A stretch of 64,000 nt of DNA from Dehalococcoidia bacterium. Its GTDB lineage: Bacteria > Chloroflexota > Dehalococcoidia > UBA6926. Position 1 is the first letter of the stretch, and the number at the start of each line of letters is the position of its first letter. Under the pieces are notes generated by a model. That model ran no database searches, was not told where the DNA came from, and worked only from the letters and a program-made list of their open reading frames with translations. A program made the position numbers and the translations under genes. This document shows positions 399 through 60,710 of this stretch, in pieces. Location: NCBI GenBank assembly GCA_965214725.1, contig OZ243973.1, positions 801,938-865,937 on the forward strand, read 5' to 3'.

Positions 399-1358
399 TT
401 GGCTGAAGCGTCATCGACATACAACGCGCCGCGCGCATCACGTGAGGACCTGCACAAGCGGCTGCTGTCCGGCTCTCGCTCAGGGCGCGGAACAGAGGCA
501 GTCATCCACGCGCTTCTCTTGGCGGCGACGGTTATCTCGATCGCCACGACGTTGGGCATCGTCTTCGTGCTGGTGAATGAGAGTTTCCGGTTCTTTCAGG
601 ACGTCTCCGTCATTGATTTCCTGACGGGCACAGTCTGGACTCCCCGCTTTCAGCCATCACTCTTCGGCGTGCTCCCGCTCGTGGCCGGCACTGTTCTGGT
701 TGCCGCCATCGCCATCATGGTTGCAGGGCCCGTCGGCCTCTTCACTGCCATCTTCCTGAGCGAGTACGCGCCGGACGGATTCCGCCGCGTCGTCAAGCCA
801 ATGTTGGAGATCCTCGCAGGAATCCCGACCGTGGTGTACGGCTACTTTGCGCTCACATTCGTGACGCCGCTGCTGCAGGAGTATCTGTTCCCGGACATGA
901 TCATCTTCAATGCGCTAAGCGCCGGCCTTGTCATGGGCGTCATGATCATCCCCATCGTGTCGTCACTGACAGAGGACGCAATGCTGGCCGTGCCGCGCTC
1001 TCTGCGTGAGGCCGCCTATGCGTTGGGGGCAACGCGGTTTGAGGTGGCGACGCGTGTCGTCACGCCCGCGGCGCTCTCCGGCATCGTCGCCGCCCTCATC
1101 CTTGGGCTGTCGCGCGCCATCGGCGAGACGATGCTGGTCACCATTGCGGCCGGAGCAACGCCGCGCCTCACCGTTGACCCGCGTGAGAGCATCCAGACGA
1201 TGACGGCGTACATCGTCCAGGTGGGGTTTGGTGAAACGCCGCAGGGCACGACGATTTACTACACCATCTTCGCTGTAGCGCTGCTCCTCTTCGTGATGAC
1301 ACTCGTGATGAACATCCTGGGGCAGTGGGTTGTCCGACGCTGGAGGCAGGCCTACTAA
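399..1358 (+). CDS. pstC: Phosphate ABC transporter permease PstC
   Basis: Multi-TM protein with the EAAxALGATRxE permease signature ([12 protein letters not shown]). First gene of the pst cluster. Confidence 0.85.
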
Positions 1359-1370
1359 GGCGCGGCATCC

Positions 1371-2282
1371 ATGGGAACACAACAACACAGCGCCCCCGTT
1401 AACAGCGTCAGCGCAGAGCAGTTCGATCGGAGTCTGCGAGGACGCCGCCTTATCGGCAAGGCGGCCGTGATCCTCTTCTTTCTCTCGACATTCGTCGGGC
1501 TGGCAACGCTGGCCGCGCTCCTCATTGATGTGCTCATTGACGGGCTGCCGTGGATCGATTGGGACTTCCTATCGACATATCCATCTCGCCGCCCGGAGGA
1601 TGCCGGCCTTCGCTCAGCCCTCTTTGGAACGCTCTGGATCGGGGGACTGACAGCCCTGTTCACGTTCCCCATCGGCACGGCAACGGCGATCTATCTGGAG
1701 GAATACGCGCCGCGCAACAGGCTCACGCAGCTGATTGAGGTGAACATCTCCAACTTGGCAGGTGTGCCTTCGATCGTCTATGGACTGCTCGGGTTGGCCG
1801 TCTTCGTCTTCCTGCTGGGCATGGGACGCGTAATCCTGGCCGGCGCGCTCACGCTCACCCTGCTTGTGCTGCCCCTGCTCATTGTGGCGGGGCGAGAGGC
1901 GATACGCGCAGTGCCGGACAGTTATCGGCAGGGATCATTGGCATTGGGGGCGACGCGATGGCAGACGGTGCGGCATGTGGTGCTGCCATCCGCGATGCCC
2001 GGCATCCTGACGGGCACCATCCTCGCAATGTCCCGGGCAATCGGCGAGGCGGCGCCGCTCCTCGCAATCTCCGGTCTCGTCTTTGTCACGTTCACGCCCG
2101 GCCATCCCCTCGAGCGGTTCACCGTTCTGCCGATTCAGATCTTCAATTGGGTCTCACGCCCGCAGCTGGATTGGCAGCACGTCACCGCGGCGGCGATCAT
2201 CATCCTGCTGCTGGTCTTGCTGTCAATGAATGCGACGGCGATCTTCCTACGGGACAGGTTCCAGCGGCGGTCAGAAGAATAG
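1371..2282 (+). CDS. pstA: Phosphate ABC transporter permease PstA
   Basis: Second permease; EAAxxLGA-like motif ([12 protein letters not shown]). Directly follows pstC. Confidence 0.85.
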
Positions 2283-2320
2283 CAGGACACATTTATGCGG
2301 ACACGGGAGAAAAGAGTCAC

Positions 2321-3109
2321 ATGACAACTGCGCCAGCGGTCTCTGCGCCGCCTGCCCTATCCGCCCGCGGGCTTAGCCTCTATTACGGAGGCTTCCGCGC
2401 GCTCAAGGACGTTGATCTGGAGATTCCCCAACACAAGATCACGTCCTTTATCGGGCCGTCCGGCTGCGGCAAGAGCTCACTCCTACGCTGCATGAATCGG
2501 ATGAATGACCTGATCCGGACAGCGCGCGTGGAGGGGCAGGTCTTCTTCAACGGGGATGACATCTACGCGGAGGAGGCGGACCCCACGCACATTCGGTTCC
2601 GCGTCGGCATGGTCTTTCAGAAGCCCAACCCGTTCCCGAAATCGATCTATGATAACGTCGCCTTTGGCCCCAGGCTCGCCGGCTACAAGGGTGATATGGA
2701 CGCGCTCGTTGAACGCTGCTTGAGGCAGGCCGCCCTGTGGGACGAGGTGAAAGACCGCCTGAAGGAATCCGCGTATCGGCTCTCCGGCGGGCAGCAGCAG
2801 CGGCTCTGCATCGCGCGGACGCTGGCGCCGGACCCGGAGGTCATCCTGATGGATGAGCCTTGCTCAGCGCTCGATCCCATCGCGACGCTCGCCATCGAGG
2901 AGTTGATGCGGGAGCTGGCGCCGAATTACACCATCGTGCTGGTCACCCACAACATGCAGCAGGCCGCCCGCGTCTCAGACCATACGGCGTTCCTCACCGT
3001 CGATGAGCACCGCACCGGCTATCTCGTTGAGTTCGGTGAAACGGGGACGATCTTCTCGATGCCGCGAGAGAAATCGACAGAAGATTACATTACAGGCCGC
3101 TTTGGCTAA
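2321..3109 (+). CDS. pstB: Phosphate ABC transporter ATP-binding protein PstB
   Basis: Walker [26 protein letters not shown] signature and the PstB-specific N-terminus ([14 protein letters not shown]). The six-frame ORF 1958..3109 has a spurious N-extension overlapping pstA; the ATG at 2321 matches PstB homolog length. Confidence 0.85.
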
Positions 3110-3124
3110 GGGGACAGGCGTACA

Positions 3125-4054
3125 ATGACACATCAGCTTAGGGAAGACACCGATGGCGGGGTGGCAATCGGCCCGCCTATCATGACCATGGTGGCGAACA
3201 GACAGGAACGAGACACTCGCATGGACATGCCCGGTGGGATGCCGCTGCCTGACCATCTCTCTGACCGCCTACCGGTGGCGGATCGCCCCATCTCCCTGAG
3301 CACGAAGAATATGTCGCTCTACTACGGCGAGTTCAGGGCGCTCAAGGACATCTCCGTTGAGATTCCGGAACGAACGGTCACGGCGATTATCGGCGCATCC
3401 GGCTGCGGCAAGAGTTCCTTCCTGCGCAGCTTCAACCGGATGAATGACCTGATCCCCGGCGCGCGCCTGGAGGGAACGGTGGAGCTGGGCGGCGTCCCCA
3501 TCTATGATCGGCGCGTTGATGTGACTGAGCTGCGCCGCGTCGTCGGCATGGTGTTCCAACGCCCCAACCCGCTCCCGATGTCCATCTATGAAAACATCGC
3601 CTACGGCCCCCGGAGGCGTGGCGTGGGGAATCGCGCAGAGCTGGACGGCATTGTCGAGAGATGCCTCACGCAGGCGGGGCTGTGGGATGAGGTGAAGGAC
3701 AAGCTCAAGCAGGAGGGCAATGAACTATCCGGCGGGCAGCAACAGCGGCTCTGCATCGCGCGGACGCTGGCCGTGGAGCCGGACGTCATCCTGATGGATG
3801 AGCCATGCTCCGCGCTCGACCCCGCCTCAACGCTGCACATCGAGGAACTCATGCAAGAGCTGGGGCGTGAGTACACGATCCTCGTCGTCACTCACAACAT
3901 GCAGCAGGCCGCACGCGTGTCTGAGATGACCGCATTTATGCATATGATTGAGGATCGCGCGGGCGCCCTGATAGAGTTTGGCCCAACAACAGGGATCTTC
4001 ACCAACCCGAAAGAAAAGACGACTGAGGACTACATCACGGGCCGTTTCAGTTAA
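3125..4054 (+). CDS. pstB: Second PstB-type phosphate ABC transporter ATPase paralog (alternative start at 3221)
   Basis: Walker [26 protein letters not shown] and [14 protein letters not shown]; a tandem paralog of the preceding pstB. Confidence 0.8.
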
Positions 4055-5167: not shown

Positions 5168-5311
5168 GTTTGACAGAATCGTCCGCAAGTTCGGTTTCGA
5201 ATTCCGTGAGAGCGGCGAGGGTACGGCCGAGGTGCACTCATTCCCCTCATACCCGCGCGTTCTCCTCATACCCGCGAAAGCGGGTATCCATCGGGGCTCC
5301 CAACCTTAGAG
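5147..5311 (+). pseudogene. HicA/YcfA-like toxin remnant; C-terminal half replaced by REP1 element sequence
   Basis: The N-terminus MPITAREFDRIVRKFGFEF resembles the YcfA/HicA family (…RKFGFELVRQKGSH…). The conserved GSH motif is missing, and the last ~25 codons are the translation of a REP1 repeat (…IPAKAGIHRG…). Confidence 0.4.
5264..5294. repeat. REP1-family palindromic element (core ATWCCCGCG-AAAG-CGGGWAT flanked by GATGG/CCATC and GAGGGGA/TCCCCTCA)
   Basis: cctcatacccgcgaaagcgggtatccatcgg; related copies at 8573, 19704, 20426, 20563, 26329, 36611, 37187 and 60679. Confidence 0.8.
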
Positions 5312-5343: not shown

Positions 5344-7158
5344 CTAAATCTTGTCCGCGTAGGGCCAGATTTCGATTATCTTCTCGGCCATCCACTTGCT
5401 GCGGCGCTCGATGGCGTCCTCGTCCCAGACATTTCCGGCCATCTCCAAGAGCTCGGTGTTGAGGCGCAACGTGGTGTGCTTCTTGAGTGTGTCAATCTTG
5501 CTTTCCCAAGCACCATTGGACAAGGAGACATTCAGTTTCTGCGTGACCAACGTAATGTTGCCAATCTCCTTGATTGCATTCGCCCTCTTGCCCAACCTCT
5601 CTTCATTCTGCATTTGCTCTGGCGGCAGCTGCCAGTTTCGTTGCCACGATTGGGGCATGATGTGTTCACGGGACAGATTGCCTGCAACAAGTTTCTCGGT
5701 CATTCCCGTCCGGATATGCTGCTCGATGGCCTCCAGTACCATCACTTGCCTTCCCACAGTGCCCTTCATAGGCTGTCCCACCAGGCTATCCCGGATATGA
5801 GAATCCAGCGGCCAAGTTCGATTTTCCGAAGTTTGACCTCGCAAGAACTCTACGATCGCATCTGGCACTGACCGATGCGTTTCGTGAATCAGCTTGCCAG
5901 TTAGTTCAAAGAAGAGTCTGTTCAATCCTTGGGATTGTTGGCCGCAGAGCATCCTTCTAACCAAGTAACTCTCAAGTGCCTTCGTTGATCGCACTATGTC
6001 ATCCTCAGCAACGTCTTCTGTGTAGAGCCGCAATAGGAGTGGAATGACAACGCCCAATTCCATCGTCTTGAGCCTCTGCAAAAACTGCTCTATTCCCGGC
6101 TGTCGCGCCTCCTCCATATCCAAATAAAATTGTCCAGCTCTGCGGAGTTCGGCAGCGATATTGTCTATATCATTTGGCCGCGACTCAACCACGGTTCGGA
6201 AACCCTTGTAAACTCGCTCCGCCGTCACTTCGACACCATCACCTTGTTTCATTGATTCTATTTCTAGGGCAGTCCAATAGTTCAGAAATCGATCCAAATG
6301 AATCCGGCTCAATCTACCTTCCTGGGTACCCCTTCGCCACCAATCTTGATCCTCTTCAAAGTACCCCCAAAGGTTACGAGCCTTTTGCTCGTCATCAACG
6401 ACATCGGCCCGGAACATAATTTCATTCTTGATGAGGTCAGATTCCAGTAGCCGTTCGGCTCGTGCATTCAGCACCGAGAATACAAAATGGGGTTTCTCGC
6501 TGGCATCCAGGTCAACTGTTGCCAATTTCATGTACTCGGACAGGGTCTTCTTCAAAGCCTCAGTCCGTTCCTCCCTCTCGCGCGGAGCCTCATTCATCCA
6601 AGACGTAGCCTTGCCCAAGAAATAGCTGAGGGCTTCATCGATGCCCCTTGCTGTAGGTGTCGCTGTTCCTTGCCGGATAACATTCTGAAATGAAGTCCTA
6701 TCACTCACATTTGATTGGCGCACTTTTGTCTGATTCTCGGTATCGTCAGTCCAAGATCTCTCGTCATTCAGCGTCAGCCTTTGGAGATCGTTCGCTCTAT
6801 CATTGTCACCAAGATTGCGGAAACACTGCTGCACGGCTCGAATCAAGACTTGCAGAGTCGTGAGCCTTTGCTGTCCGTCAACGACGATCTGTCGATCCAC
6901 CTTAGGGCCGGAACCCGAACTATACTGAGACTGCAAAATGATTGCCCCCATGAAGTGGGCGGGGACGTTTGAATCGGAGGATCTCATGAGTTCGAGAGCC
7001 TTGTCTTTCACATCTTCCCAAAGCGGGTACCATTGGTCATCCTCAGTCCACGCATACGGTCGCTGAAACACCGGAATCCGATACGAGACGTTATAGCCAA
7101 AGAGCTCGTCAAGCGTCCGCACATTTGCGTCCATAATCGTTATTCCCCTTTCTCTCAA
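5344..7158 (-). CDS. GmrSD-like DUF262 (ParB/Srx-like NTPase, DGQQRLTTL) fused to DUF1524 (HNH-like) — putative type IV modification-dependent restriction endonuclease
   Basis: N-terminal ...IPVFQRPYAWTEDDQW... and DGQQRLTTL motif (DUF262). C-terminal ...HIMPQSWQRNW...NLTLVTQKLNVSLSNGAWESKIDTLKK (DUF1524 His-Me finger-like). Visibly lower GC than its neighbours. Confidence 0.7.
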   Translation of the reverse strand: MRERGITIMDANVRTLDELFGYNVSYRIPVFQRPYAWTEDDQWYPLWEDVKDKALELMRSSDSNVPAHFMGAIILQSQYSSGSGPKVDRQIVVDGQQRLTTLQVLIRAVQQCFRNLGDNDRANDLQRLTLNDERSWTDDTENQTKVRQSNVSDRTSFQNVIRQGTATPTARGIDEALSYFLGKATSWMNEAPREREERTEALKKTLSEYMKLATVDLDASEKPHFVFSVLNARAERLLESDLIKNEIMFRADVVDDEQKARNLWGYFEEDQDWWRRGTQEGRLSRIHLDRFLNYWTALEIESMKQGDGVEVTAERVYKGFRTVVESRPNDIDNIAAELRRAGQFYLDMEEARQPGIEQFLQRLKTMELGVVIPLLLRLYTEDVAEDDIVRSTKALESYLVRRMLCGQQSQGLNRLFFELTGKLIHETHRSVPDAIVEFLRGQTSENRTWPLDSHIRDSLVGQPMKGTVGRQVMVLEAIEQHIRTGMTEKLVAGNLSREHIMPQSWQRNWQLPPEQMQNEERLGKRANAIKEIGNITLVTQKLNVSLSNGAWESKIDTLKKHTTLRLNTELLEMAGNVWDEDAIERRSKWMAEKIIEIWPYADKI

Positions 7159-8572: not shown

Positions 8573-8640
8573 CCCGATGGTTTCCCGCTTTCGCGGGAAT
8601 GAGGGGAGTGGGCCGCGGGAATGAGGGTGTGGCCGCGGTG
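8573..8640. repeat. REP1-family element (one full copy plus a degenerate half copy)
   Basis: cccgatggtttcccgctttcgcgggaatgaggggag followed by gggccgcgggaatgagggtg. Confidence 0.75.
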
Positions 8641-8651
8641 AGGAGGCGCCA

Positions 8652-9869
8652 TCAGATCACCCCTTCGGAGCGCAGGAGTGACACCTCCTTGCCCTCGATG
8701 CCGATCTCATTCAGGATCTCAACCGTGTGCTCCCCCAGCAGTGGGGCACGGCGACGGGCGGGCCGTTCCCCGTCATCAAAATGGATGCGGGAATTGAACC
8801 CGGGGTAGAGTTGCGGGCCGGTGGCCGGGTGGTCGATGGTCTGCCAGAATCCGCGCTCAGCAAAGTCCTCGTCCTTGATAAGGTTCTCGATGGTGTTCAT
8901 CGGGCCGCCGAGCACGCCGAATTCCATGCAGGCACGCTGCACCTCCTTCATGGTGCGCTCCAGCATCCACGGGACCAGGATCGCCTCCCACTCCTCCGCC
9001 GCCTCAGGCCGAGACCGCGCCGCCACGCTGTCCCACCCGGGCTGTGAGAGAATCTCCTCCTGCCCCACCATACGCGCCATATTCGGAAACATGGCGGGGC
9101 CGGCCGTCGTCATGAACATCCCGTCAATGCACGGGTAGACACCGCTGCCCAGCCCGAGGCTCGCGCCCGGTGAGACGCGCATCGGCACCCTGCCGTTGTA
9201 CTGGTAGCCGAGCAGGCGCTGCATGCGACCATCGATGGACTGCAGCGTCACCTCAAAGTAGCTGACATCAATGTTCTCACCCTGCCCGCGCAGTTCAGCG
9301 TTGGTCAGGCCGAGGGCGGTGGCGAGCGCGGCGGCATAGCCAACATGGAAACTCGCCATGCGCCCCGCCGTCTTGATCGGCTCAAGCTCCGGATCGCCCG
9401 ATCCCCACATGTTGCCGCCCATCGCATACATGGTGAGGTCGAGCCCGACCCAATCCCGGTAGGGGCCGGTCTTGCCGAAGTTGCTGATGGAGGTCATCAC
9501 GAGGCGGGGGTTGATGCGGCTGAGCTCGTCATAGCCGAGGCCGGCATCCGGCATCACATCCGGCGGAAAGTTCTCGATGAGGATATCCGCATCCTTGACG
9601 AGGTCTTTGATGATCTGCTTGCCCTTTTCCGTCTTGAAATCCAACGTCATGGAGCGCTTATTGGTGTTGAGAAAGAGGAAGAGACCGCTCTTCTCAAGCC
9701 CCGGCTCATCATGGTAGAAGGGGCCGATGCGGCGGGCAGGATCGCCACCGCCTGGCTGCTCAATCTTGATAACATCGGCCCCATAATCGCCCAGGATGCG
9801 CGTGGCATACGGGCCGGCAGTGTAATGCGTCAGGTCAATGACGCGGACACCCTCCAACGGCATGAACAT
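8652..9869 (-). CDS. Family III CoA-transferase (CaiB/BaiF family), second adjacent paralog
   Basis: LEGVRVIDLTHYTAGPYATRILGDYGADVIKIEQPGGGDPAR signature. Confidence 0.8.
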   Translation of the reverse strand: MFMPLEGVRVIDLTHYTAGPYATRILGDYGADVIKIEQPGGGDPARRIGPFYHDEPGLEKSGLFLFLNTNKRSMTLDFKTEKGKQIIKDLVKDADILIENFPPDVMPDAGLGYDELSRINPRLVMTSISNFGKTGPYRDWVGLDLTMYAMGGNMWGSGDPELEPIKTAGRMASFHVGYAAALATALGLTNAELRGQGENIDVSYFEVTLQSIDGRMQRLLGYQYNGRVPMRVSPGASLGLGSGVYPCIDGMFMTTAGPAMFPNMARMVGQEEILSQPGWDSVAARSRPEAAEEWEAILVPWMLERTMKEVQRACMEFGVLGGPMNTIENLIKDEDFAERGFWQTIDHPATGPQLYPGFNSRIHFDDGERPARRRAPLLGEHTVEILNEIGIEGKEVSLLRSEGVI

Positions 9870-11687: not shown

Positions 11688-11820
11688 GTCATTCTGAACG
11701 GAGCGCGATAGCGCGGAGTCGAAGAATCTCGCAAGCAGGTGGGCGCGTCGAGCGTACTGCGCCATGCACGTCACGCGTAGGGCGCGCCGCGGGATTCTTC
11801 GCTCCGCTCAGAATGACAGG
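11688..11820. repeat. Inverted pair of REP2-family elements (long form at 11688-11728, short form at 11791-11820) forming a ~130-bp MITE-like palindromic unit
   Basis: gtcattctgaacggagcgcgatagcgcggagtcgaagaatc … gggattcttcgctccgctcagaatgacagg. Confidence 0.7.
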
Positions 11821-11897: not shown

Positions 11898-11947
11898 GCC
11901 CGTACACATTCCTGCTTGGCGCGGTATACTCTATTCACGCGCGGGGT

Positions 11948-19640: not shown

Positions 19641-19703
19641 GCCTTAAGGGTAGCGCATGGCGCGAGGGGAGTGGGGCGCCCCTCACCCCGGCCCTGGCGG
19701 GCC

Positions 19704-19740
19704 TCCCCTCATTCCCGCGCACGCGGGAATCCATCGGGGG
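19704..19740. repeat. REP1-family element
   Basis: cctcattcccgcgcacgcgggaatccatcggggg. Confidence 0.8.
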
Positions 19741-19757
19741 GCTGGTCCGGGGGGGTA

Positions 19758-20048
19758 TCAGTTGGGAAGGGTGAGTATGGCAACAAACATGGCGATGAAT
19801 CCCGCGAACATGCTGGCCCACATGAGGCCCAACATCACATTGATACGGGCGCCCAACCTTTCAATCTGTTGGCGGAGGGCCTCATCGCCCGTTTGCATGT
19901 CTTTGCGGAGGGCTTCAAAACCCTCGCGCGTTTCTTGGCGGAAGAGTATGTTGTGCCCCTGAATGTCATCGAGGCGCTTGTTCATCTGCTCGAAGGCGCC
20001 TTCGATCCGGGTCATGCGGTCGTTGTCTGTTGGTGTGCTTGTTGTCAT
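19758..20048 (-). CDS. Small XhlA-like protein (N-terminal coiled coil, C-terminal TM anchor), paralog 1
   Basis: MTTSTPTDNDRMTRIEGAFEQMNKRLDDIQG… ends in the hydrophobic LGLMWASMFAGFIAMFVAILTLPN. It is 55-85% similar to 20111..20374 and 25852..26178. Confidence 0.5.
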   Translation of the reverse strand: MTTSTPTDNDRMTRIEGAFEQMNKRLDDIQGHNILFRQETREGFEALRKDMQTGDEALRQQIERLGARINVMLGLMWASMFAGFIAMFVAILTLPN

Positions 20049-20082
20049 TGCCGTCGTTCCTCTCTACGACAGTGTACCAGGC

Positions 20083-20107
20083 GGGGGGCGGGGGGGGGGG
20101 GGGGGGG
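20083..20107. repeat. Homopolymeric G tract (G6-C-G18) between paralog 2 stop and paralog 1 start (35-60 nt upstream of the paralog 1 start codon)
   Basis: gcggggggcgggggggggggggggggggcgg. Confidence 0.7.
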
Positions 20108-20110
20108 CGG

Positions 20111-20374
20111 TCAGTTGGGGATGGTGAGGATGGCGATGAATCCGCCGACCATCGTCGCCCAGAGGAGGCCGAAGCCGATGAACATCATGTTCCGAAGGCC
20201 ATCAATCCGGCGGTCCATCGCATCAAGACGGCGGTCCATCCCATCAAAGCGGCGTTCCATGCTTTCGAACCGGAGGACTATCTGTTCCAAGGCGCCCTCG
20301 ATGTGGCTGATTCGTTCAGAATCCGGTGGGGGGGATGTGTCTGTTGTCATGACGGTCCCTCTCCTTCTGGGCAC
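20111..20374 (-). CDS. Small XhlA-like protein (coiled coil plus C-terminal TM), paralog 2
   Basis: MTTDTSPPPDSERISHIEGALEQIVLRFESMERRFDGMDRRLDAMDRRIDGL… ends in FIGFGLLWATMVGGFIAILTIPN. Confidence 0.5.
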   Translation of the reverse strand: MPRRRGTVMTTDTSPPPDSERISHIEGALEQIVLRFESMERRFDGMDRRLDAMDRRIDGLRNMMFIGFGLLWATMVGGFIAILTIPN

Positions 20375-20425: not shown

Positions 20426-20466
20426 CCCCTCCCCTCATTCCCGCGCACGCGGGAATCCATCGGGGA
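20426..20466. repeat. REP1-family element
   Basis: cccctcattcccgcgcacgcgggaatccatcggggag. Confidence 0.8.
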
Positions 20467-20562: not shown

Positions 20563-20600
20563 GGATGGATTCCCGTTTTCACGGGAATGAGGGGAGGGGG
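20563..20600. repeat. REP1-family element (variant cccgttttcacggg)
   Basis: ggatggattcccgttttcacgggaatgaggggag. Confidence 0.7.
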
Positions 20601-20619: not shown

Positions 20620-20640
20620 GGGGGGGGGGGGGGGGGGGGG
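20620..20640. repeat. Homopolymeric G tract (G21)
   Basis: ggag followed by 21 G, then atgagggg. Confidence 0.7.
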
Positions 20641-20834: not shown

Positions 20835-23800
20835 TTATCCGCCGATCACTCCGTCACGCGTCGCGAACAGCAGGTAGCCCTTGCCCTTCTCAACAACCGC
20901 GCGATGCTCATCCATGGTGAACCCGTCCGTGGCCGTGCCGTTCGAGAAGTAGGTCTCGTACTGCGGCGGCGTCGCGGCTGAGTTCCACATCCGGATCATG
21001 CCCCAGCCGCTGTTCCCCAGCGCGCTCAGGTAGGCGTCCACCGGAACCATCGTCTCGTTGCCCGCGGGCGTGTAGCCGATGCTGTTCCAGCCGGCCGTCA
21101 CCGTGTACTGGGAGGGCGTGCGCTGGGGGCTGAACCGCTCTGTGAGCACCTTCACCGGATCGAACGTCGTGCTGCGGACAAAGTAGCCGCGCCCGTCAAC
21201 GATCTGTGTCAGTGTGCCCATCCATTCGCCGCTGTCGGCGTCCTTCCGTGCGAACTCCCAGATCTTCGTCTCGTTGTTCAGGCTCCAGACGTCCGTCACC
21301 ATCGATCCCTCAAGCACACCATCAATGCTCTTGTCCTGCGGGGTGCCCGGGATGGAGATGAGCGACCAGCCAGGGTTCACGGCAACCGATGCAGGCGCAG
21401 GCGCCGTGATCTTGAACACGTACCCGAACTTGCCCTCGTTGCCAGCCTCGTCCACGAAGTCGACGTTCAGGCGGTAGTTGCCGATGGCCAGGTCTGACAG
21501 GGCGACCACGTACCGAACGTGATTCGAGCTCTGCGCAGACCCGTCCTCAACTTCCCACGTCTCCGTCACTTCAACCATCGCGGCAGCCTTGAGCATGTCG
21601 TCGCTGTCAAGCGAGCCGGCTGACAGGCCCTCAAGGCCCAAGCCTGTGACGGTAACCATCTTCTTGGTGTCAGTTGACTTGTATTCGTCCCCGGTGCCTG
21701 TACCGTACTCGTTAGCCTCAGCAGCGAACTCGAAGTTGAGGAACACAACGTCATTGACCTCAATCGGCTGAGCAACCATGGGATCCGCGTCCTTGTCATA
21801 CACCCGTGCGGGGGGCATGCCGCCGTTCGCCTTGGTATCAAGCTCCCATGTGGACTTCATGCTCATACCATCATTGTCATTCGTATCCGTACCAGTGACG
21901 TGAACGGTGTACTTACCGCTAGCACTAGTTCCGCCAAGGTTCTCGGCCTTCCTGTTCGTGCTCACTGTCCACGTGTTGTCATCCGATGCGGCCCGCACAG
22001 ACAGTGGCTCGTCATAGGAGCCAAGCATCAAGCGTGCCTTCGGCGTCTGCTCGAGTTCCTCAGAGGCGACGATGGTGATTTCCAACTCATCATTGCTGAG
22101 CGGGTTGGCCACAGTCACCGTGAATACAGGAGCGAGCTCATCCACCGGCTTCGCCGTGTGATCGTTCCTGCTCTCGTTGCCAGCCAAGTCGCGCAGATCG
22201 CCATTGTCTATGTCGATTGTAGGTCGCGCATCGGTCGCCAGGTCGTTCTCAAGGGTCAAGAACAGAAGGTGCCTAGCGTCCTCACCATCGGCCATGTCGT
22301 CAGCGAGCCCGAGATCATCTCGAACGGCCACGCCGCCGACGGAACCAATCTTGCTACCGTTCGTGTTATCCAACCAAGTCACGCTGGTGACGCTGTTGCC
22401 GCTAACGCTGACATTCTGTGCATTCACGTCAGCCCCAGCGATGGCATCATCAAACACCAGCACGATGCCCTTCGTATTCTCGGTGACCAGTTCATAGGGA
22501 TCGCCATCGGAGCCGGCCTTGACGCTGACGCCCGTGAGAGCCTTCATCAGTTCCGGATCGATGTCATCCACCACGAACGTGTATGACTTCTTCGCCACGT
22601 TCCGCGCAAGGTCATACGCGGTGATATCGACTTTGACAGTCACGGTCTCCGGCTCGTCGTCGCCAGTGCCCTCTGCTGTCTGTACAGCACTGGTGACATC
22701 GAATTCAATCTCGTAACGCTCGCCATCAGTGATTTCGTCGTCGACATCTAGCTCAGCGGTGTCCCCGCCGTCCAAGTCGAGGACTGGCTCATCTTCGCCC
22801 TGACCGTACATTGCCATCCGCATGACGTGGTAGTGGCCATCACGGATCTCCTCTTCATGGGCATCCTCGGGGATGCCAGAGTCAGCATCCGTCACGTTGA
22901 AGAAGAAGGAGAAGTCATCATCCGCAACGTATGAACCGCTGGCGAGAGAGTTTCCGCCAATCGCCGGCGCAACAATGTCAACCTCTGTGCGTGCAGTGCG
23001 AGTGCCGGTGGGCTCCGCATCGCCATACCGAATCGTCACCGTGTCGCCATGCTCCACGCCGATAACGGCAGCCAGCAAAGCGTCCACCCTAGCACCCATC
23101 AGCCCAAGATTTCCTGTGTGACCGTTGATCGCATCAACAAGCGATACCGCCTGCATGCAATTCTTGTCTCTGTCGGCCATGTCGTCATCACCACAGAAGG
23201 AGTTGAAGACACCATCAATCTCGTCATCGCCCTGATCGGCCGTTCCAGTTGCCTGAACGGTTGCGAGCAAGGACGCAATGGTTCCGCTCGCCGCTTCTGT
23301 CGTGTAGTTCACCATGAACATGTCAGCCGTATCGGCCGTAGCCTCGTTGCCATCTTCAGCGACACTGCTCCCGTTAAGCGGGACCGCAACAGTAACAGTC
23401 CCATCGCTATTGACGGTCACCACATGATCGTTGGCCATGGTGGTCCGGACAGAACCATCGGTATCCACACCGGGCTTAAACATCACTTCCAAACTTCCGG
23501 ATACCAACGTATTCGCCGCTGAAACACCTGTAAGGTTGAACACCGCCGACGGCGCGGCAGCGATTGTGTTGGGATCATCCGGAGTCTCAGCGGTGTTAAC
23601 TGCTGGGGACACGACAGTAATCGTCTGCGCCTGAGCCTGTGGGGTCGGGACAAGGCCCGCGTAATCCGCAATCGCGTCCTTAAATTCCTTGCGGATGACT
23701 CCAAAGCGGCCAACAAACACACCAGAGTCTCGGGAGTCCGCAGCCGCAGGATCGAAACTTGTGATGTCGGTCCCGCCAAAGTTAGCAGCGCCGACACCGT

Positions 23801-24688
23801 TATCCAGTGCAGCATATGTGGCCAGGTTCTTCTCACTCACTGAGATCCTGATGGAACTCCGATCGGACGTGCTCGAGACCTCGACACGGCTCTTGTCCTG
23901 AAGGGTCTCAACTCTGTAATCGCTCGGATAAGTCAATGCATTTTCCCCAGCGGAGTCAAACCCGATTCGCAATGCTGGAACATACTCAACGTTATTCTCA
24001 GCAGCCGGCCTGTCCACAGTGGGTATTGAATCCCCTTCTTGAAGGTTAGGGATTAAGCCTCTATCTAGGTAGAGTCCGTCATTCGCTGTATTGATCCCAG
24101 CGAAGGCACCGCTCTGAAGGGCCCGCGTACCAACAAACTTGGCGGGAGCGGCCATTACCGGAGGGGTAGCACTGGGGTTAGCACGAACAGCCGGAAGGTA
24201 CCATCCAAGCTCAAGCTCGATATCTTCCCCATTCACAACACCGTCACGTGTATCATCACCGACGACCAAACTACCGAGAACCATTATCTCATCTGCTATG
24301 TCGTCAGCTGTGTCACGATCCGTGTCTAGACCCCGCGAAGCGAAGTCACCTACCAAATCACCGTTCGGCAGGTTAACGGCCACAGCAAAGCCAGCCGCTC
24401 CAGAGGAGGACGCCAAGCTGGGGTCGATCCTAAAAAGGGATCCACCAGGATTCGCATCTGGAAGGTTGGTGACGCGTCTTCGAGAGAGGTAACGGAGCCT
24501 GTCGTATCCGACACGTACTCGGTGCCCATGAGCTTTTCAAACGTTGAGCCAGTCTTCCCAGAGGGATTGGCGAGCTCATCGGGGGTAACGATTTTGACGT
24601 TACCGGCGGCTGCGCCGGCCCCGATGGCCGGGATCATGGCGAACGCGAGGATCGCGACCGTCAAGATAATGAGTGCTTTGCGCTTCAC
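20835..24688 (-). CDS. Very large (~1280 aa) acidic secreted/cell-surface protein with a Sec signal peptide; apparent frameshift near 24470-24500
   Basis: Signal peptide VKRKALIILTVAILAFAMIPAIGAGAAAG (GTG at 24688 after a GGAAGGGGG RBS) is in the frame of ORF 24350..24841. That frame switches to the 1193-aa ORF 20835..24416 around 24470-24500. The body is D/T/G/V-rich with repeated beta-rich segments (Ig-like/adhesin- or S-layer-like composition). No LPXTG sorting signal. Confidence 0.6.
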
Positions 24689-25179: not shown

Positions 25180-25223
25180 GGATTCTTCGGCTCCGCGCTA
25201 TCGCGCTGCGCTCAGAATGACAT
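25180..25223. repeat. REP2-family element, long form
   Basis: ggattcttcggctccgcgctatcgcgctgcgctcagaatgac. Confidence 0.75.
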
Positions 25224-25240
25224 GGGGGAGGGGGCCCCAC

Positions 25241-25413
25241 TGTCATGCCGGGCCTCTCACTGTCATACCGGGCCTCCCACTGTCATTCCGAGCCTCCCAC
25301 TGTCATTCCGGGCCCCCCACTGTCATTCCGAGCGCCCTTCATGTCATTCTGAGCGCGCCATGTCATTCTGAGCGCCCTTCATGTCATTCTGAGCGCAGCG
25401 AAGAATCCCGCAG
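25241..25413. repeat. Tandem array of ~8 units of ~20 bp derived from the REP2 half-site (cactgtcattccgRgcYYcc … atgtcattctgagcgc), ending in a full REP2
   Basis: Contiguous units with no spacers (minisatellite-like; not CRISPR). Confidence 0.8.
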
Positions 25414-25430: not shown

Positions 25431-25727
25431 TTACCAGTCACGCGCCAAATCAATCCACCGAGGGTTCGTGGATTCTATGAGGGCGATCTTCTTGCTACGC
25501 AGCCACCCCTTGATCTGCTTTTCGCGCTCCAACGCCACCTTGACGTCTGAGGTCTCCTCAAAGTAGACCAGCCAATTGATCTTGTACCTGCTGGCGAAGC
25601 CGGGCGTGAGGCCCTGTTTGTGCTCATGGATGCGCCGCTGGAGGTCCCTGGTCATGCCGACGTACAGCTTGTGCCTCGGGTTCGACAGGATGTAGACGAA
25701 GTAACGATGCTCTTGTCTGTTGTTCAT
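25431..25727 (-). CDS. GIY-YIG nuclease family protein (~98 aa, stand-alone GIY-YIG domain)
   Basis: …YFVYILSNPRHKLYVGMTRDLQRRIHEH… is the GIY-YIG motif. The six-frame ORF's N-extension is a translation of poly-G/REP and is rejected; the ATG at 25727 is used. Confidence 0.75.
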   Translation of the reverse strand: MNNRQEHRYFVYILSNPRHKLYVGMTRDLQRRIHEHKQGLTPGFASRYKINWLVYFEETSDVKVALEREKQIKGWLRSKKIALIESTNPRWIDLARDW

Positions 25728-25736
25728 GCTTGTTGG

Positions 25737-25765
25737 ATTCTTCGCTGCGCTCAGAATGACATATG
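25737..25765. repeat. REP2-family element, short form
   Basis: ggattcttcgctgcgctcagaatgacat. Confidence 0.8.
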
Positions 25766-25830: not shown

Positions 25831-25849
25831 GGGGGGGGGGGGGGGGGGG
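25831..25849. repeat. Homopolymeric G tract (G19) immediately 3' of paralog 3
   Basis: gggaatt, then 19 G, then tatcag. Confidence 0.7.
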
Positions 25850-25851
25850 TA

Positions 25852-26178
25852 TCAGTCTGCGAGGGTGAGGATGAAGACGTACAGAGCGATGAATCCGGCA
25901 ACCGTCGTGACCCACATGATGCCCCCAATCATCAAGTAGAGGCGGTCAGCGACTCTATAGATCTTCTCGTCGAGCCGGACAACATCCTCGCGCATGTCTT
26001 TGCGGAGGGCATCAAGACCTTCGCGCGTATCCTTGCGGAGGGAGTCAAAACCTGCGTGCGTCTCTTGGCGGAAGAGTGTGTTTTGCCCTTGGATGTCATC
26101 GAGGCGCTTATTCATCTGCTCGAAGGCGCCTTCGATCCGGGTCATGCGATCGTTGTCTGTTGGTGTGCCTGTCGTCAT
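25852..26178 (-). CDS. Small XhlA-like protein (coiled coil plus C-terminal TM), paralog 3
   Basis: MTTGTPTDNDRMTRIEGAFEQMNKRLDDIQGQNTLFRQETHAGFDSLRKD… ends in YLMIGGIMWVTTVAGFIALYVFILTLAD. Confidence 0.5.
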   Translation of the reverse strand: MTTGTPTDNDRMTRIEGAFEQMNKRLDDIQGQNTLFRQETHAGFDSLRKDTREGLDALRKDMREDVVRLDEKIYRVADRLYLMIGGIMWVTTVAGFIALYVFILTLAD

Positions 26179-26179
26179 C

Positions 26180-26300
26180 GTCGTCGTTCCTCTGCGGACA
26201 ATGCGGCACGCGCGAGCGGGGAGGGAGGTGGGGGTATCAGGTCCGCGAGGGTGTGCCTGTCGTCATCGTCGTCGTTCCTGTGTAGGACAGTGTAGCACGC
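26180..26300. repeat. Partial duplication carrying a second copy of the paralog start (MTTGTP…) fused directly to a paralog 3' end (…tcaggtccgcgagggtg) — a deletion/recombination remnant of a fourth paralog
   Basis: gtgcctgtcgtcatcgtcgtcgttcct occurs at 26165-26200 and again at 26255-26290; the 3'-end motif occurs at 26225-26250. Confidence 0.55.
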
Positions 26301-26328: not shown

Positions 26329-26410
26329 GATGGATTCCCGCTTTCGCGGGAATGAGGGGAGGGGGGCGGGCGTGGCGGGAATGAGGGGAGGGAGGGCGGG
26401 AATGGGGGGG
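26329..26410. repeat. REP1-family element followed by two degenerate half copies
   Basis: ggatggattcccgctttcgcgggaatgaggggagg … ggcgggaatgaggggag … gggcgggaatggggg. Confidence 0.75.
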
Positions 26411-26486: not shown

Positions 26487-28295
26487 TTAGATCTCTCTTG
26501 AGAGGGTGGCCATGAACTCGGCGTTCGTCTTGGTCTTGCTGATGCGGTCCAGAATCCGCTCCGTGGCGTCTGAGGCGTCCAGGTTGGAGTTGGACAGCAT
26601 CGCCATCATGCGGCGCAGGGTGACGATGCCGCGGTACGTCTGGTCATCATACAGCCGCTCGTCCCGCCGCGTGCTGGACTTGAGCACGTCAATGGCCGGG
26701 TAGATGCGCCGCTCTGCCAGTTTGCGGTCCAGGTGCACCTCCATGTTGCCGGTGCCCTTGAATTCCTCGTAGATGACATCATCAAGCCGGGAGCCGGTGT
26801 CGACGAGGCACGTGGCGACGATGGTGAGGGTGCCGGATTCTTCCGTGTTGCGCGCGGCGCCGAAGAAGTGCTTGGGGGGGTACAGCGCGACGGGGTCCAT
26901 GCCGCCGGAGAGCGTGCGCCCGGAGGATGGGGCGGCAATGTTGTAGGCGCGCGCAAGTCGGGTGATGGAATCGAGCAGGATGACAACGTCCCGCCCGGCC
27001 TCAACCAGACGCTTGGCGCGCGCAAGAACCAGCTCGGCAACGCGTGTGTGCTCTTCAACGGGCTCGTCAAAGGTGGAGGCCATAACCTCGGCGCCCTTGA
27101 CGGTGCGCTCCCAGTCCGTCACCTCTTCCGGCCGCTCGCCGATGAGGGCCGCCATGATGTGGGTGCTGGGGTATTTGGCGGTGATCGCATCAGCGATCTG
27201 GTGGAGCAGGATGGTCTTGCCGGCCTTGGGTGGGGAGACAATCAGGGCGCGCTGCCCAAAGCCGATGGGGGCGATGAGGTTCAGCAGTCGCGCCGCAACA
27301 GCCTTCTGGCTGGTCTCCAGGTCATAGAGCCGGTCCGGGAAGAGGGCGGTCAGCTGGTCAAAGATGGGCCGACGCCGCGCGATCTCCGGCTCCTGGCCGG
27401 TGACGGCGTCAACACGGAGGAGGCCGTAGTATTTCTCACCGCTCTTGGGGGAACGGACGTGGCCGGTTACCCAGTCACCGGTGCGCAGGCCGAATCGCCT
27501 GACTTGAGATTGCGCGACGTAGACATCATTGATGTTGTGGCGGAGTGTGCGGTGCCGGATAAAGCCGTAGCCGTCATTGGTGATCTCTAGGATGCCGCTC
27601 GCGCTGATGGTGCCGCCACGCTCACCCAAGGTCTGGATGGCGCGATGCACCATCTCGTCCCGCCGGACAATGGCGCTGGCAGACATGCCGAGGAATTCGG
27701 CAAGGCGGGCGGCCTCGTCACGGTCGAGGGACTCAAGCTGCGGGATGGTGACACTGCGCAGTCCCTCCGGGAGGGAGGCGGCACGGGCGGCGCGCTCAGC
27801 CTCGCTCATCTCGTTGGACTCGTCAGGCTCAGGGCGCTGGCGTGGCGGCCGGTCACGGTCCGGCCGGCGGCGCGATGGGGCGCCGTTGGCAGAGCGGGGA
27901 CGCTGCGGGCGCCGGACGGGGGCCGGCTCATCATCAACAACAAAGTCATCAGCCGACGGCGCGTCCGGTGACATGGTGGCGGGGGGGAGTCCCTCCGTGA
28001 TGGAGGGCGTGCCATTGGTCGTGGACGGGGAGGCGGCGGTGACGCCGTTGGCCGGGGGCGCGTCGACTGTATCAGGGCGAGTGGCAACGGCAGCGCCGTT
28101 CTTCTCGGTGACGGCCTCATCAGTCACGGCATCACTTGGTGCGGCGGTGGCTGTGGCGCGGCGCGTGCGTGGCGGGCGGGCAATGCCGCGCCGTGTCACG
28201 GGGCGCTGCGGCTCGTCCGGGGTCGGGGTATCTGTCGTGTCCACGAAGGTCTCCTTTAGTGGGTGCTGCGGGCCGCTTTGCTGTGCCCGCCACAT
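26487..28295 (-). CDS. rho: Transcription termination factor Rho with a long Arg/Pro/Asp-rich N-terminal insertion domain
   Basis: The C-terminal ~420 aa contain the Rho cold-shock-like RNA-binding region, Q/R loops and the RecA-like ATPase. An N-terminal ~200-aa low-complexity extension precedes it. The ATG at 28295 lies immediately after the pyrG stop; the further-upstream part of ORF 26487..28589 overlaps pyrG and is rejected. Confidence 0.8.
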   Translation of the reverse strand: MWRAQQSGPQHPLKETFVDTTDTPTPDEPQRPVTRRGIARPPRTRRATATAAPSDAVTDEAVTEKNGAAVATRPDTVDAPPANGVTAASPSTTNGTPSITEGLPPATMSPDAPSADDFVVDDEPAPVRRPQRPRSANGAPSRRRPDRDRPPRQRPEPDESNEMSEAERAARAASLPEGLRSVTIPQLESLDRDEAARLAEFLGMSASAIVRRDEMVHRAIQTLGERGGTISASGILEITNDGYGFIRHRTLRHNINDVYVAQSQVRRFGLRTGDWVTGHVRSPKSGEKYYGLLRVDAVTGQEPEIARRRPIFDQLTALFPDRLYDLETSQKAVAARLLNLIAPIGFGQRALIVSPPKAGKTILLHQIADAITAKYPSTHIMAALIGERPEEVTDWERTVKGAEVMASTFDEPVEEHTRVAELVLARAKRLVEAGRDVVILLDSITRLARAYNIAAPSSGRTLSGGMDPVALYPPKHFFGAARNTEESGTLTIVATCLVDTGSRLDDVIYEEFKGTGNMEVHLDRKLAERRIYPAIDVLKSSTRRDERLYDDQTYRGIVTLRRMMAMLSNSNLDASDATERILDRISKTKTNAEFMATLSREI

Positions 28296-28299
28296 GTCA

Positions 28300-30063
28300 T
28301 CAGCGCGTGGCGGTCGTCTCTCTGGGTGGTGTTGCGTGTGGATGCTGCTCAGCGTTGTTGTTGGGGGAACGATGGGATGATGCATCAACGCGCTGGGCCG
28401 GGTGGGCCATGCCGTCTTGCGCGACGATGAGGGGTGGCTGCTCGCCGGCGCGGAGGATGCCGGCGGCAACGGAGACGAATTCCCGGAAAAGGGGATGGGC
28501 GCGCGTGGGCCGGGATTTGAATTCCGGGTGGAACTGCGTCCCAAGCATGAACGGATGATCACGCGCCTCTGAGATCTCAACAAGGTCAAGCTCCCGGTAG
28601 GCGCCGCTCACAATGAGGCCCGCCTCCTTAAAGGAGGCACGATAGGCGTTGTTGAATTCAAAGCGGTGCCGGTGCCGCTCAATGACGGTCTCCGGATCAC
28701 CATACGCATGGGCGGCAACGGTGCCGGGCGTGAGGTGGCAGAGGTAGGAGCCGAGGCGCATGGTGCCACCCTTGGCGCGGACACGCTCCTGCTCCTCCAT
28801 GATGTGGATGACAGGATGAGGCGTCCCGACATCAAACTCGGTGGAGTTGGCGCCGCTCAGACCGGCGACGCTGCGCGCAAATTCAATGACCATGATCTGC
28901 ATACCAAGGCAGAGGCCCAGATAAGGGATACGCTGCTCACGAGCGTAAGACGCGGCGCGGATCATTCCCTCGATCCCGCGAGACCCGAAGCCGCCCGGGA
29001 CAACGATGCCGTGCGCACGGGCGAGCCGTTCCTCCCAGCCGTCCACCTCCAACTCCTCCGCAGATATCCAATCAATGTCAATGTCCACGCCGATCTCAAG
29101 ACCGGAGTGGGTGAGCGCCTCCCGAACGGAGAGGTATGCATCACGCAGTTCAACATACTTGCCGACAATCGCGACGGTGAGCGGCGGCTTGGGTTCCTCA
29201 AAGCGCTGGACAAGGTCCCGCCAGTCATCGAGACGCGGCTCCATCTCCGCATACCCATCAAGCTTCATCCTGTTTAAGAGGTAGTCGCCAAGTCCGCGCT
29301 CCTCAAGCAGCAGCGGGACGCGATAGATGGTATCCACCGTCGAAAGCGGGATGACAGCCTGCGGCTCAACATCACAGAACAGGGCGATCTTCTCGATGGT
29401 TTCCTGCGTGGTCTCCACCTCGCTGCGGGCAATGATGACATCCGGCAGGATGCCGGCGCTGCGCCCAAGCTCACGGACGGAGTGCTGTGTCGGCTTTGTC
29501 TTGAGTTCGCCGGTGGCGTGGAGATACGGCAGATACGTCACATGGACAAAGATGGCCTCAGTCCGACCGAGTTCGTTGCGGACCTGGCGAATCGCCTCAA
29601 GGAACGGCTGCCCCTCAATATCACCAACGGTTCCGCCCACCTCGATGATGATGACCTCCGCGCCGGACTCGTCCGCAACCTGCCTCATGCGGTTCTTGAT
29701 GGAATTCGTGACATGGGGGACAACCTGGATTGTGCCGCCGAGGAAATCACCGCGCCGCTCACGGGAGAGCACGGATGAGTACACCTGGCCGGCCGTGACG
29801 CTGGACGCGCGTGTCATCTCGGCATCGACAAATCTCTCATAGTGGCCGAGGTCAAGGTCCGTCTCCGCACCATCACCCGTCACAAACACCTCCCCATGCT
29901 GGTACGGAGACATGGTGCCTGGATCGACGTTGAGATAGGGGTCAAGCTTCTGAACTGCGACCTTGATGCCGCGGCTCGTGAAAAGTCGGCCAATGGCAGC
30001 GGCCGTGATTCCTTTACCGATGGAACTAACGACGCCGCCTGTCACAAAGACGTACTTTGCCAT
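28300..30063 (-). CDS. pyrG: CTP synthase PyrG with a ~45-aa C-terminal extension
   Basis: MAKYVFVTGGVVSSIGKG synthetase N-terminus; glutamine amidotransferase domain with GLCLGMQ. Confidence 0.9.
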   Translation of the reverse strand: MAKYVFVTGGVVSSIGKGITAAAIGRLFTSRGIKVAVQKLDPYLNVDPGTMSPYQHGEVFVTGDGAETDLDLGHYERFVDAEMTRASSVTAGQVYSSVLSRERRGDFLGGTIQVVPHVTNSIKNRMRQVADESGAEVIIIEVGGTVGDIEGQPFLEAIRQVRNELGRTEAIFVHVTYLPYLHATGELKTKPTQHSVRELGRSAGILPDVIIARSEVETTQETIEKIALFCDVEPQAVIPLSTVDTIYRVPLLLEERGLGDYLLNRMKLDGYAEMEPRLDDWRDLVQRFEEPKPPLTVAIVGKYVELRDAYLSVREALTHSGLEIGVDIDIDWISAEELEVDGWEERLARAHGIVVPGGFGSRGIEGMIRAASYAREQRIPYLGLCLGMQIMVIEFARSVAGLSGANSTEFDVGTPHPVIHIMEEQERVRAKGGTMRLGSYLCHLTPGTVAAHAYGDPETVIERHRHRFEFNNAYRASFKEAGLIVSGAYRELDLVEISEARDHPFMLGTQFHPEFKSRPTRAHPLFREFVSVAAGILRAGEQPPLIVAQDGMAHPAQRVDASSHRSPNNNAEQHPHATPPRETTATR

Positions 30064-36610: not shown

Positions 36611-36641
36611 GATGGATTCCCGCTTGCGCGGGAATGAGGGG
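36611..36641. repeat. REP1-family element
   Basis: gatggattcccgcttgcgcgggaatgaggggac. Confidence 0.8.
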
Positions 36642-37186: not shown

Positions 37187-37219
37187 GATGGATACCCGCT
37201 TTCGCGGGTATGAGGGGAG
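37187..37219. repeat. REP1-family element (tacccgc variant)
   Basis: gatggatacccgctttcgcgggtatgaggggagg. Confidence 0.8.
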
Positions 37220-59567: not shown

Positions 59568-59699
59568 TGTCATTCCGAGCGCAGCCGAGGAATCTAAAGG
59601 GCCGCCCCATGGACAACGTGAATGGCGCAACCTACTCGCCGTGGCCACCTGCTTGCGGGATTCTTCGGCCCCGCGCTAGCGCGCTGCGCTCAGAATGAC
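59568..59699. repeat. Two REP2-family elements (short form 59568-59594; long form with palindromic core 59657-59699)
   Basis: gtcattccgagcgcagccgaggaatc … ggattcttcggccccgcgctagcgcgctgcgctcagaatgac. Confidence 0.75.
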
Positions 59700-59735
59700 A
59701 GGAAGGGGAGCGCGCGAAGGGCATGAGGAGGGGGC

Positions 59736-60678: not shown

Positions 60679-60710
60679 GATGGATACCCGCTTTCGCGGG
60701 TATGAGGGGA
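60679..60710. repeat. REP1-family element
   Basis: ggatggatacccgctttcgcgggtatgagggga. Confidence 0.8.

Follow-up and report, generated by a model that had tools for sequence, protein, structure and literature searches.

The locus described here raises the question of why four long G/C homopolymers should lie beside genes for membrane and secreted proteins in a single 64 kb stretch of a Dehalococcoidia bacterium genome (Chloroflexota; GenBank assembly GCA_965214725.1, contig OZ243973.1, positions 801,938 to 865,937; G+C 61%), hereafter the window. An earlier note, made from the sequence of the window alone, had suggested that the runs are either phase-variation switches or assembly artefacts. 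Three of them are G on the forward strand and, because the three small paralogous genes beside them (P1, P2 and P3) are encoded on the minus strand, represent poly-C in the mRNA sense; all the runs here read poly-C in the sense of their neighbouring genes. The first, C18-G-C6 in the sense orientation (20083-20107, minus strand; G18 at 20090-20107 and G6-C at 20083-20089), begins 3 nt past the stop codon of P2 (20111-20113) and occupies positions 35-59 nt ahead of the P1 ATG (the P2-P1 tract). The second, C21 in sense (G21; 20620-20640, minus strand), is inside a C-rich repeat spacer between the gene for a large surface protein and P2, with 194 nt separating it from the preceding stop codon of the 1193-aa gene and 269 nt from the P2 start that follows. 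The third, C19 in sense (G19; 25831-25849, minus strand), begins 2 nt past the P3 stop with a half-hairpin arm (AATTCCCGCC) directly next to it, and is separated by 103 nt from the next start, which is that of a GIY-YIG gene and not of a paralogue. The fourth, C11 (11887-11897, plus strand), lies 60 nt ahead of the first in-frame ATG (11958) of a tlpA-like/sortase operon and ends 5 nt upstream of the -35 element of the promoter predicted for that operon (TACACA-16-TATACT, 11903-11930). The coordinates that the earlier note gave are correct for all four runs, as are its placements of the P2-P1 tract between the P2 stop and the P1 start and of C11 upstream of the operon, while of the two runs that it placed directly after stop codons G19 does follow one and G21 is preceded by no paralogue stop. 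It had also overlooked a C7 run in sense (G7; 19749-19755, minus strand) 2 nt past the P1 stop, the site equivalent to that of the post-P3 run. Besides the four tracts no run of at least 10 nt occurs anywhere in the 64 kb, G18 arose in 0 of 100 dinucleotide-preserving shuffles, and no tract falls within any reading frame.

Whether the runs are real can be judged from closely related strains. Exact-protein look-ups led to three more long contigs of ENA analysis ERZ25070917 (L001/L109, L002 and L003, with a coverage of 13-14x according to the contig names), and a cluster look-up found these proteins in 4 contigs only, including the 1.87-Mb source contig of the window. Identity among the four strains is 97-99.7%, with zero gaps, for MeaB, the AlkZ-like protein, Rho, the GIY-YIG protein, P1 and the C-terminal portion of the large protein, and the flanking coding sequence, about 5 kb in all, aligns gap-free. 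Amid these conserved flanks the tract lengths, which were taken from alignments since the flanks differ too much for an automated table, vary strongly, as the hypermutability claimed in the earlier note predicts. The run that separates the P2 stop from the P1 promoter is C18-G-C6 in the window, C9 in L002, C10 in L003 and C26 in L109, while in the same order the post-P3 run measures 19, 16, 18 and 15 nt and the post-P1 run 7, 10, 10 and 8 nt. At the site of G21 there are 21 nt in the window, no run in L002 or L003 and 7 nt in L109, and upstream of the tlpA-like operon the window C11 corresponds to C5-A-C5 in L003 and to C5A(CCA)n...C9 in L109, this position being outside the covered locus in L002. 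Uniform length across strains, the result that the earlier note had named as contradicting its proposal, was looked for, and the lengths range from 7 to 26.

That the tracts are sequencing or assembly artefacts is in our judgement extremely improbable. Homopolymers of more than 15 nt are error-prone whatever the technology, and the related contigs have only the coverage given above; however, four contigs, each assembled separately, have a run at the same three places past stop codons, not one gap interrupts the flanking coding sequence, and shorter C runs occupy the homologous site in distant genomes from other assembling groups. Differences of 9 versus 26 or 7 versus 21 nt are far beyond consensus noise. 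As a control, runs of 5 differ in 0 of 53 strain comparisons, and a coding C7 in P2 and another in rho are invariant between strains. The shared sites, the gap-free flanks of 97-99% identity and the unvarying runs of 5 together argue against the artefact that the earlier note had left as an option. Length instability grows with run length, and slipped-strand mispairing is the cause that we infer for it. The existence and position of the tracts, the conservation of their sites and the variation of their length between strains are direct observations, and the comparison supports the view that these long G/C tracts are genuine and hypermutable at the strain level.

The positions of the runs follow the architecture of the small paralogues. 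P1 (96 aa, 19758-20048, minus strand) has an N-terminal coiled coil and a C-terminal transmembrane helix; P2 (79 aa) and P3 (108 aa) are encoded at 20111-20350 and 25852-26178 on the same strand. Tandem 33-nt (11-aa) coiled-coil repeats within the paralogues vary in copy number with the strain (window 25988-26072; L002 8001-8360; L003 570-929; L109 7643-7960), such that P3 reaches 119 aa in two strains via one additional repeat, and the L109 copy of P2, which has a 36-nt triplication, is frameshifted by a 1-nt deletion that places the membrane helix out of frame. A further tandem copy of P3 has been reduced by internal deletion, with its junction at the microhomology CACC, to nine codons (MTTGTPSRT*, 26237-26266, minus strand; conserved in L001) that retain promoter, start, stop, TA and C5. 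Since this deleted copy keeps everything from the promoter through the post-stop C5, the repeated unit spans the promoter to the post-stop C run. P1, P2, P3 and the deleted copy all end with the stop codon, TA or CCG, and a C run, the gap between stop and run being 2-4 nt in every paralogue copy. Among 13 distant Dehalococcoidia homologues, 7 carry a C run of at least 4 nt within 4 nt of the stop, against a background of 14/239 open reading frames (ORFs). A genome-wide habit of placing C runs after stops was considered and rejected, as G runs are about equally frequent there (11/239 ORFs, versus 14/239 for C runs). In the related loci L013 and L016, TAA-CCCC(C) stands in the short spacer ahead of meaB and represents the ancestral state, and in L013 the gene for a second, distinct small tail-anchored protein has TAA-C9-TGGTAAACT upstream and TAA-C6 downstream. 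A coding or read-through role of the tract was also rejected, as the post-P3 lengths (19, 16, 18 and 15) differ modulo 3, as do the frames.

For the paralogues, Pfam and NCBIfam scans gave nothing above threshold, exact look-ups of the P1 and P2 proteins returned no record, and the top relatives from a profile search of 1.8 billion proteins showed sub-threshold coiled-coil or XhlA-like matches only. A scan of JGI metagenomes for the 3' ends of the paralogues, by means of a degenerate pattern, returned 89 stretches, all by chance, and an Rfam search of the whole window found one tRNA only and no known RNA family at the tracts.

The best explanation as a whole, which we hold with moderate confidence, is that C runs have been expanded by slippage in two local modules and that the P2-P1 tract tunes a promoter. 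The G runs would be poly(dC).poly(dG) tracts grown from short C runs, in one module at the border of the paralogue unit, where in tandem copies the run would become the -35 zone upstream of the next copy's extended -10 (TGnTAYACT), and in the other module where NTS/dRS3-like hairpin repeats in the spacers have C-rich 5' flanks and half-site arrays. Above about 7-9 nt, slipped-strand mispairing at replication would destabilise the length of a run, the outcome being a heritable length polymorphism of 7 to 26 nt between strains. The P2-P1 tract, which alone would be able to touch a promoter, would set the spacing of the P1 extended -10 to upstream sequence and would probably tune P1 transcription and P2 read-through in a graded and stochastic manner, not as a frame-dependent ON/OFF switch. 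The post-P3 and 20620-20640 tracts would most likely be by-products of the same instability, although the post-P3 run may alternatively serve as a C-rich, unstructured 3' region. An effect of any tract on expression is something that we infer.

The promoter side of this explanation hinges on a putative extended -10 of P1 (TGG TACACT, 20071-20079, minus strand), identified from sequence and conservation 22 nt ahead of the ATG. TGnTAYACT occurs 22-25 nt before the ATG in the paralogue units of the window, the copy before P3 being degenerate (TGC CGCATT), and TGnTAnnnT also precedes 10/13 distant homologues from Dehalococcoidia metagenome-assembled genomes (MAGs), with distances of 6-25 nt to the start over window and distant copies. 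The P2-P1 tract lies upstream of this -10 and not between two recognisable hexamers. TACACT lies 34 nt from the P2 stop in the window, 19 in L002, 24 in L003 and 34 in L109, and a -35-like CTGACC that overlaps the P2 stop is at the optimal 17 nt from the -10 in L002 only. Because the P1 promoter appears to be of the extended -10 type, graded tuning is at most what would be expected. A related arrangement was seen at meaB, where the start reads TGCTACCCT TAAGGC ATG in the window (19641-19660, minus strand) and TGCTACCCT TAACCC ATG in L010 (about 6290-6310); the extended -10-like motif 6 nt ahead of the start suggests a leaderless mRNA. A meaB-like TACACT GTCCCC ATG is also present at the paralogue homologues of L010, L013 and L016.

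These features also bear on the earlier proposal in its full form, namely that all four tracts are classical phase-variation switches, placed in promoter spacers or 5' untranslated regions and turning surface genes ON and OFF. Every tract is length-polymorphic, the neighbours are membrane or secreted proteins of which the large one is hypervariable, and in other lineages paralogue promoters are preceded by (GGGCAANN)n arrays and a G14. In addition, the P2-P1 tract and C11 are within 21-80 nt of a start codon, the range that has been used to define promoter-overlapping tracts (PMC1891110). Of the proposed placement, however, the P2-P1 tract retains it by abutting the conserved extended -10 (TGnTACACT), whereas G19, G21 and C11 do not: at 103 nt from the start of the GIY-YIG gene and 269 nt from the nearest start, respectively, G19 and G21 are too far away to be spacer switches, the position of G19 is fixed relative to the P3 stop codon upstream of it, and C11 lies upstream of the -35 and outside the spacer. 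The position of all tracts outside reading frames and the extended -10 promoters with no recognisable -35 likewise disagree with classical switching, and we consider it unlikely that all four tracts act in this way. An on/off role is plausible, if unproven, for the P2-P1 tract only.

Several points weigh against promoter tuning by slippage-expanded runs and temper our preference for it. The assignment of the P1 extended -10 is drawn from conservation only, and a scan for consensus sigma-70 promoters around the paralogues found no match. Extended -10 promoters need no -35, so that the length of the tract may not matter, and the CTGACC spacing of 17 nt, seen in one strain of four, may be due to chance. 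The post-P3 run is long and uninterrupted (15-19 nt) in 4/4 strains, and its persistence could reflect selection for something beyond a by-product. Tandem paralogue arrays without any homopolymer exist in other lineages (L110). Differences of 1-3 bases among the runs of more than 15 nt (15, 16, 18 and 19) may partly be consensus noise at 13-14x, and, the comparison being one between strains only, reversible length variation within a population is unproven.

The post-stop position of the runs invites a different reading, in which the poly-C RNA would load Rho and thereby terminate or insulate the paralogue units in place of hairpin terminators. Poly(C) is the strongest activator of the Rho ATPase. 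Of the 100 nt past the P3 stop 60 are C and 11 are G, and this stretch folds no better than shuffles (z = -0.3), a terminator scan found no terminator-like hairpin after P1, P2 or P3 on the minus strand, the paralogues of L110 and L111 each have a GC-rich hairpin of their own at that position, and the window includes a rho gene whose product has a long N-terminal extension. The post-P3 RNA thus resembles known rut sites, being C-rich, G-poor and unstructured over the approximately 70-80 nt expected of them. The other two post-stop regions miss this description, as G-rich, structured sequence follows P1 (42 C, 36 G; -59 kcal/mol) and the P2-P1 spacer is only 62 nt long. Moreover, known rut sites are neither pure homopolymers nor hypervariable in length, and a site that varies in length, with runs of 7 to 26 nt overall, ill suits a length-constrained signal. 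The homopolymer of L111 is G on the sense strand and lies beside (GGGCAANN)n arrays, which points to repeat instability at the DNA level rather than to an RNA signal. A strong post-stop C skew as a general terminator signature of this genome was rejected (median C-G = 1 in the window), and this too counts against Rho loading, which on balance we regard as improbable.

The rho gene itself (26487-28589, minus strand) is immediately upstream of the paralogue cluster, and its extension is of low complexity and rich in Pro, Arg and Ser; its maximal ORF encodes 700 aa, and the protein is called as 587 aa in the related contigs. The contigs L110 and L111 (ENA ERZ21830300), from other lineages, carry tandem arrays of 5 and 3 paralogues belonging to this small-protein family (1026-3234 and 1501-2966, respectively) whose repeat numbers differ, the array following a large fn3-like protein and each paralogue having a TTGTGG-17-TA(C/G)AAT promoter and its own hairpin terminator. 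In L111 long arrays of the 8-nt G-rich unit GGGCAANN, which could form G-quadruplexes, occupy 750-890 and 1260-1460 with a G14 at 1247-1260; these arrays and the G14 are upstream of the first paralogue promoter, and shorter arrays precede each later paralogue.

The second module of the slippage explanation lies in the intergenic repeats. The spacers of the locus are made of CCTCATTCCCGCGnnnCGCGGGAATCCAT hairpins and C-rich 5' half-sites. The NTS/dRS3-like hairpin repeat at 19707-19734 (plus strand; CCTCATTCCCGCGCACGCGGGAATCCAT) has the core ATTCCC-N8-GGGAAT, for which the window holds 6 copies (five of them exact) versus 0.17 expected, the further ones being at 20433-20460 on the plus strand and at 20565-20592, 26330-26357, 8577-8604 and 36612-36639 on the minus strand, so that four fall within 19.7-26.4 kb. 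Additional copies of the hairpin family, which takes the form CCTCATTCCCGCG...GGGAATCCAT with a sub-variant ATACCC...GGGTAT, are at 5264-5291 (plus strand), 37188-37215 and 60680-60707 (both minus strand), and as DNA hairpins the window copies fold with z = -2.2 to -4.1. C-rich 5' flanks accompany 29/29 hairpins examined. In the window C19 and C9 adjoin hairpin arms (ATTCCCGCC), and C12 in L003 and C11 in L010 likewise adjoin hairpin arms directly. Two hairpin insertions in L010 are bracketed by C11...C5 and by C5GC10...C6, where L013 has CCCA and CCCC.

These repeats share their core with those bound by the single-domain GIY-YIG nuclease SsnA of N. meningitidis, a 94-aa protein that binds NTS and cuts single-stranded DNA a few nt 5' of the hairpin, in a variable flank; in Neisseria, clusters of NTS surround membrane-protein genes that are divergent (PMC11893778). 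Both repeats have an identical palindromic core (CCTCATTCCCGCGCACGCGGGAATCCAT here, CGTCATTCCCGCGMAVGCGGGAATCYRG as the NTS consensus), and in both cases the repeats are intergenic, are clustered at strain-divergent membrane or surface genes and have a small GIY-YIG gene inside the cluster. The window copies deviate in having CTC where the published pattern has GTC, and CCAT as their last letters in place of CYRG. The published pattern for Ssn-related motifs (SRM), HGTCWYN(0-2)YYVSBRHN(0-5)WNVSBRGN(0-2)RNCYNB, has 0 matches in the window and 9 canonical ones in related Dehalococcoidia MAG loci, and once it is relaxed at one base (GTC to NTC) 9 genuine copies are retrieved in the window; as the published pattern is not matched, we name the window hairpins NTS/dRS3-like and do not count them as SRM members. 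Copies identical to the Neisseria NTS consensus do occur in other Dehalococcoidia MAG loci. Long homopolymers beside the repeats are unmentioned in Chenal et al. 2025 (PMC11893778).

The GIY-YIG gene of the window (25431-25727, minus strand) encodes a 98-aa single-domain protein (Pfam GIY-YIG E = 1.4e-15, residues 9-80) within the size range of the Ssn family (cd10448, about 94-100 aa), making it a candidate Ssn-type nuclease for single-stranded DNA; a PDB search with this protein gave weak UPF0213 and Slx1 matches only. The gene is flanked by GTCATTCTGAGCG...GAATCC repeats that share termini with SRM and not its pattern. It is preceded by GTCATTCTGAGCGCAGCGAAGAATCC (25735-25765), a repeat related to and yet distinct from the NTS type, and followed by about eight 20-nt units CACTGTCATTCCGGGCCTCC / CATGTCATTCTGAGCGC (25200-25400). 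This second type of repeat is also found at 11690-11820, 36684 and 59569-59700. A homologue of the protein in L016, 42% identical, has canonical SRM hairpins on both sides.

From this association one may construct a mechanism in which an Ssn-type GIY-YIG nuclease nicks the C-rich flank 5' of the hairpins and repair drives changes in tract length and repeat copy number, with CCCCTCATTCCCGCG...GGGAATCCAT, C19-AATTCCCGCC and GTCATTCTGAGCGCAGCGAAGAATCC as candidate single-stranded targets. SsnA indeed cuts single-stranded DNA just upstream of the NTS hairpin, and NTS lies near membrane-protein genes (PMC11893778); hairpins with the same core are clustered in the window far beyond expectation, C runs adjoin hairpin arms in the window, L003 and L010 as described above, and all four strains conserve the GIY-YIG gene at 99-100% amid spacers in flux. 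The P2-P1 tract, however, is the most variable and lies more than 60 nt from any hairpin arm, the hairpins of the window depart from the SRM pattern at a base important for cleavage in Neisseria (GTC to CTC), and the nuclease activity is a prediction only, while plain slippage accounts for the data. The whole mechanism seems to us quite improbable, and we would give as little credence to its extension, in which the C runs mark the cleavage-side flank and nicking plus slippage form a localised diversity generator acting on homopolymer length, half-repeat copies and allele exchange. If true, such a generator would be focused on a surface-protein locus comprising the large secreted protein, which is hypervariable, with small tail-anchored proteins as its partners, and Ssn/SRM systems would gain a role outside Neisseria.

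The large secreted protein is itself strongly diversified. Its 1193-aa ORF spans 20835-24416 on the minus strand, and the N-terminal part of about 900 aa is 45-57% identical between strains, whereas the last 250 residues and the flanks are 97-99% identical. The complete gene (20835-24688) begins at about 24688 with a conserved signal peptide that in the window copy is out of frame with the 1193-aa ORF, one base having apparently been lost after ...LEDA near 24464-24481; the orthologues are intact and have 1323-1334 aa. Pfam and NCBIfam searches with the large protein found nothing above threshold. The divergence of this protein, together with the changes in repeat number and frame described above, places the tracts in a surface-protein locus that is generally unstable. 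The gene order large secreted protein, paralogue, meaB is conserved in distant Dehalococcoidia MAGs. In L002 alone, an rve-family integrase of an insertion sequence element (8822-9793) lies between the GIY-YIG and large-protein genes.

Among known systems the promoter C-stretches of the Bordetella fim genes are the closest case. Those of fim2, fim3 and fimX are 10-22 nt long, are polymorphic between strains and control paralogues (PMC1891110). As in fim2, fim3, fimX and fimN, a C run on the sense strand lies just upstream of the -10, where it stands in for the usual -35, the paralogous genes encode surface-exposed proteins, and the lengths are polymorphic between close strains. The two differ in that the Bordetella tract spaces the binding site of the activator BvgA from the -10 and has a measured effect on transcription, whereas here the promoter is predicted from sequence, 3/4 tracts are not promoter-proximal and the runs extend to 26 nt.

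A wider comparison is with the homopolymeric contingency loci of Neisseria, Haemophilus, Campylobacter and Helicobacter, which share poly-G/C beyond chance, proximity to envelope genes and variation between strains, and in which the strain-to-strain variation in length is attributed to slipped-strand mispairing. The tracts described here likewise exceed the length that base composition predicts and are strain-polymorphic with conserved flanks. They differ from those loci, which are mostly in reading frames or between -35 and -10 and act ON/OFF, in lying neither within a frame nor between two recognisable hexamers. By these sequence properties, the tracts are best classed as genuine contingency-type repeats, with a putative switch function. 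To our knowledge, nearly all simple-sequence contingency loci described so far come from cultivated pathogens adapted to a host, and we know of none described in an uncultivated Chloroflexota lineage such as these Dehalococcoidia.

Thus long-read metagenome contigs of four co-assembled strains reveal the signature of a contingency locus in uncultivated Chloroflexota, consisting of extreme poly-C runs of strain-specific length beside envelope-protein paralogues. Should tract length have no effect on expression, the locus would serve as a warning that G/C runs of 15-26 nt in MAGs built from HiFi reads can be real and specific to a strain. If tract length does affect expression, stochastic surface variation would reach a new phylum, and the locus would offer a natural system in which to probe Ssn-associated repeat clusters.

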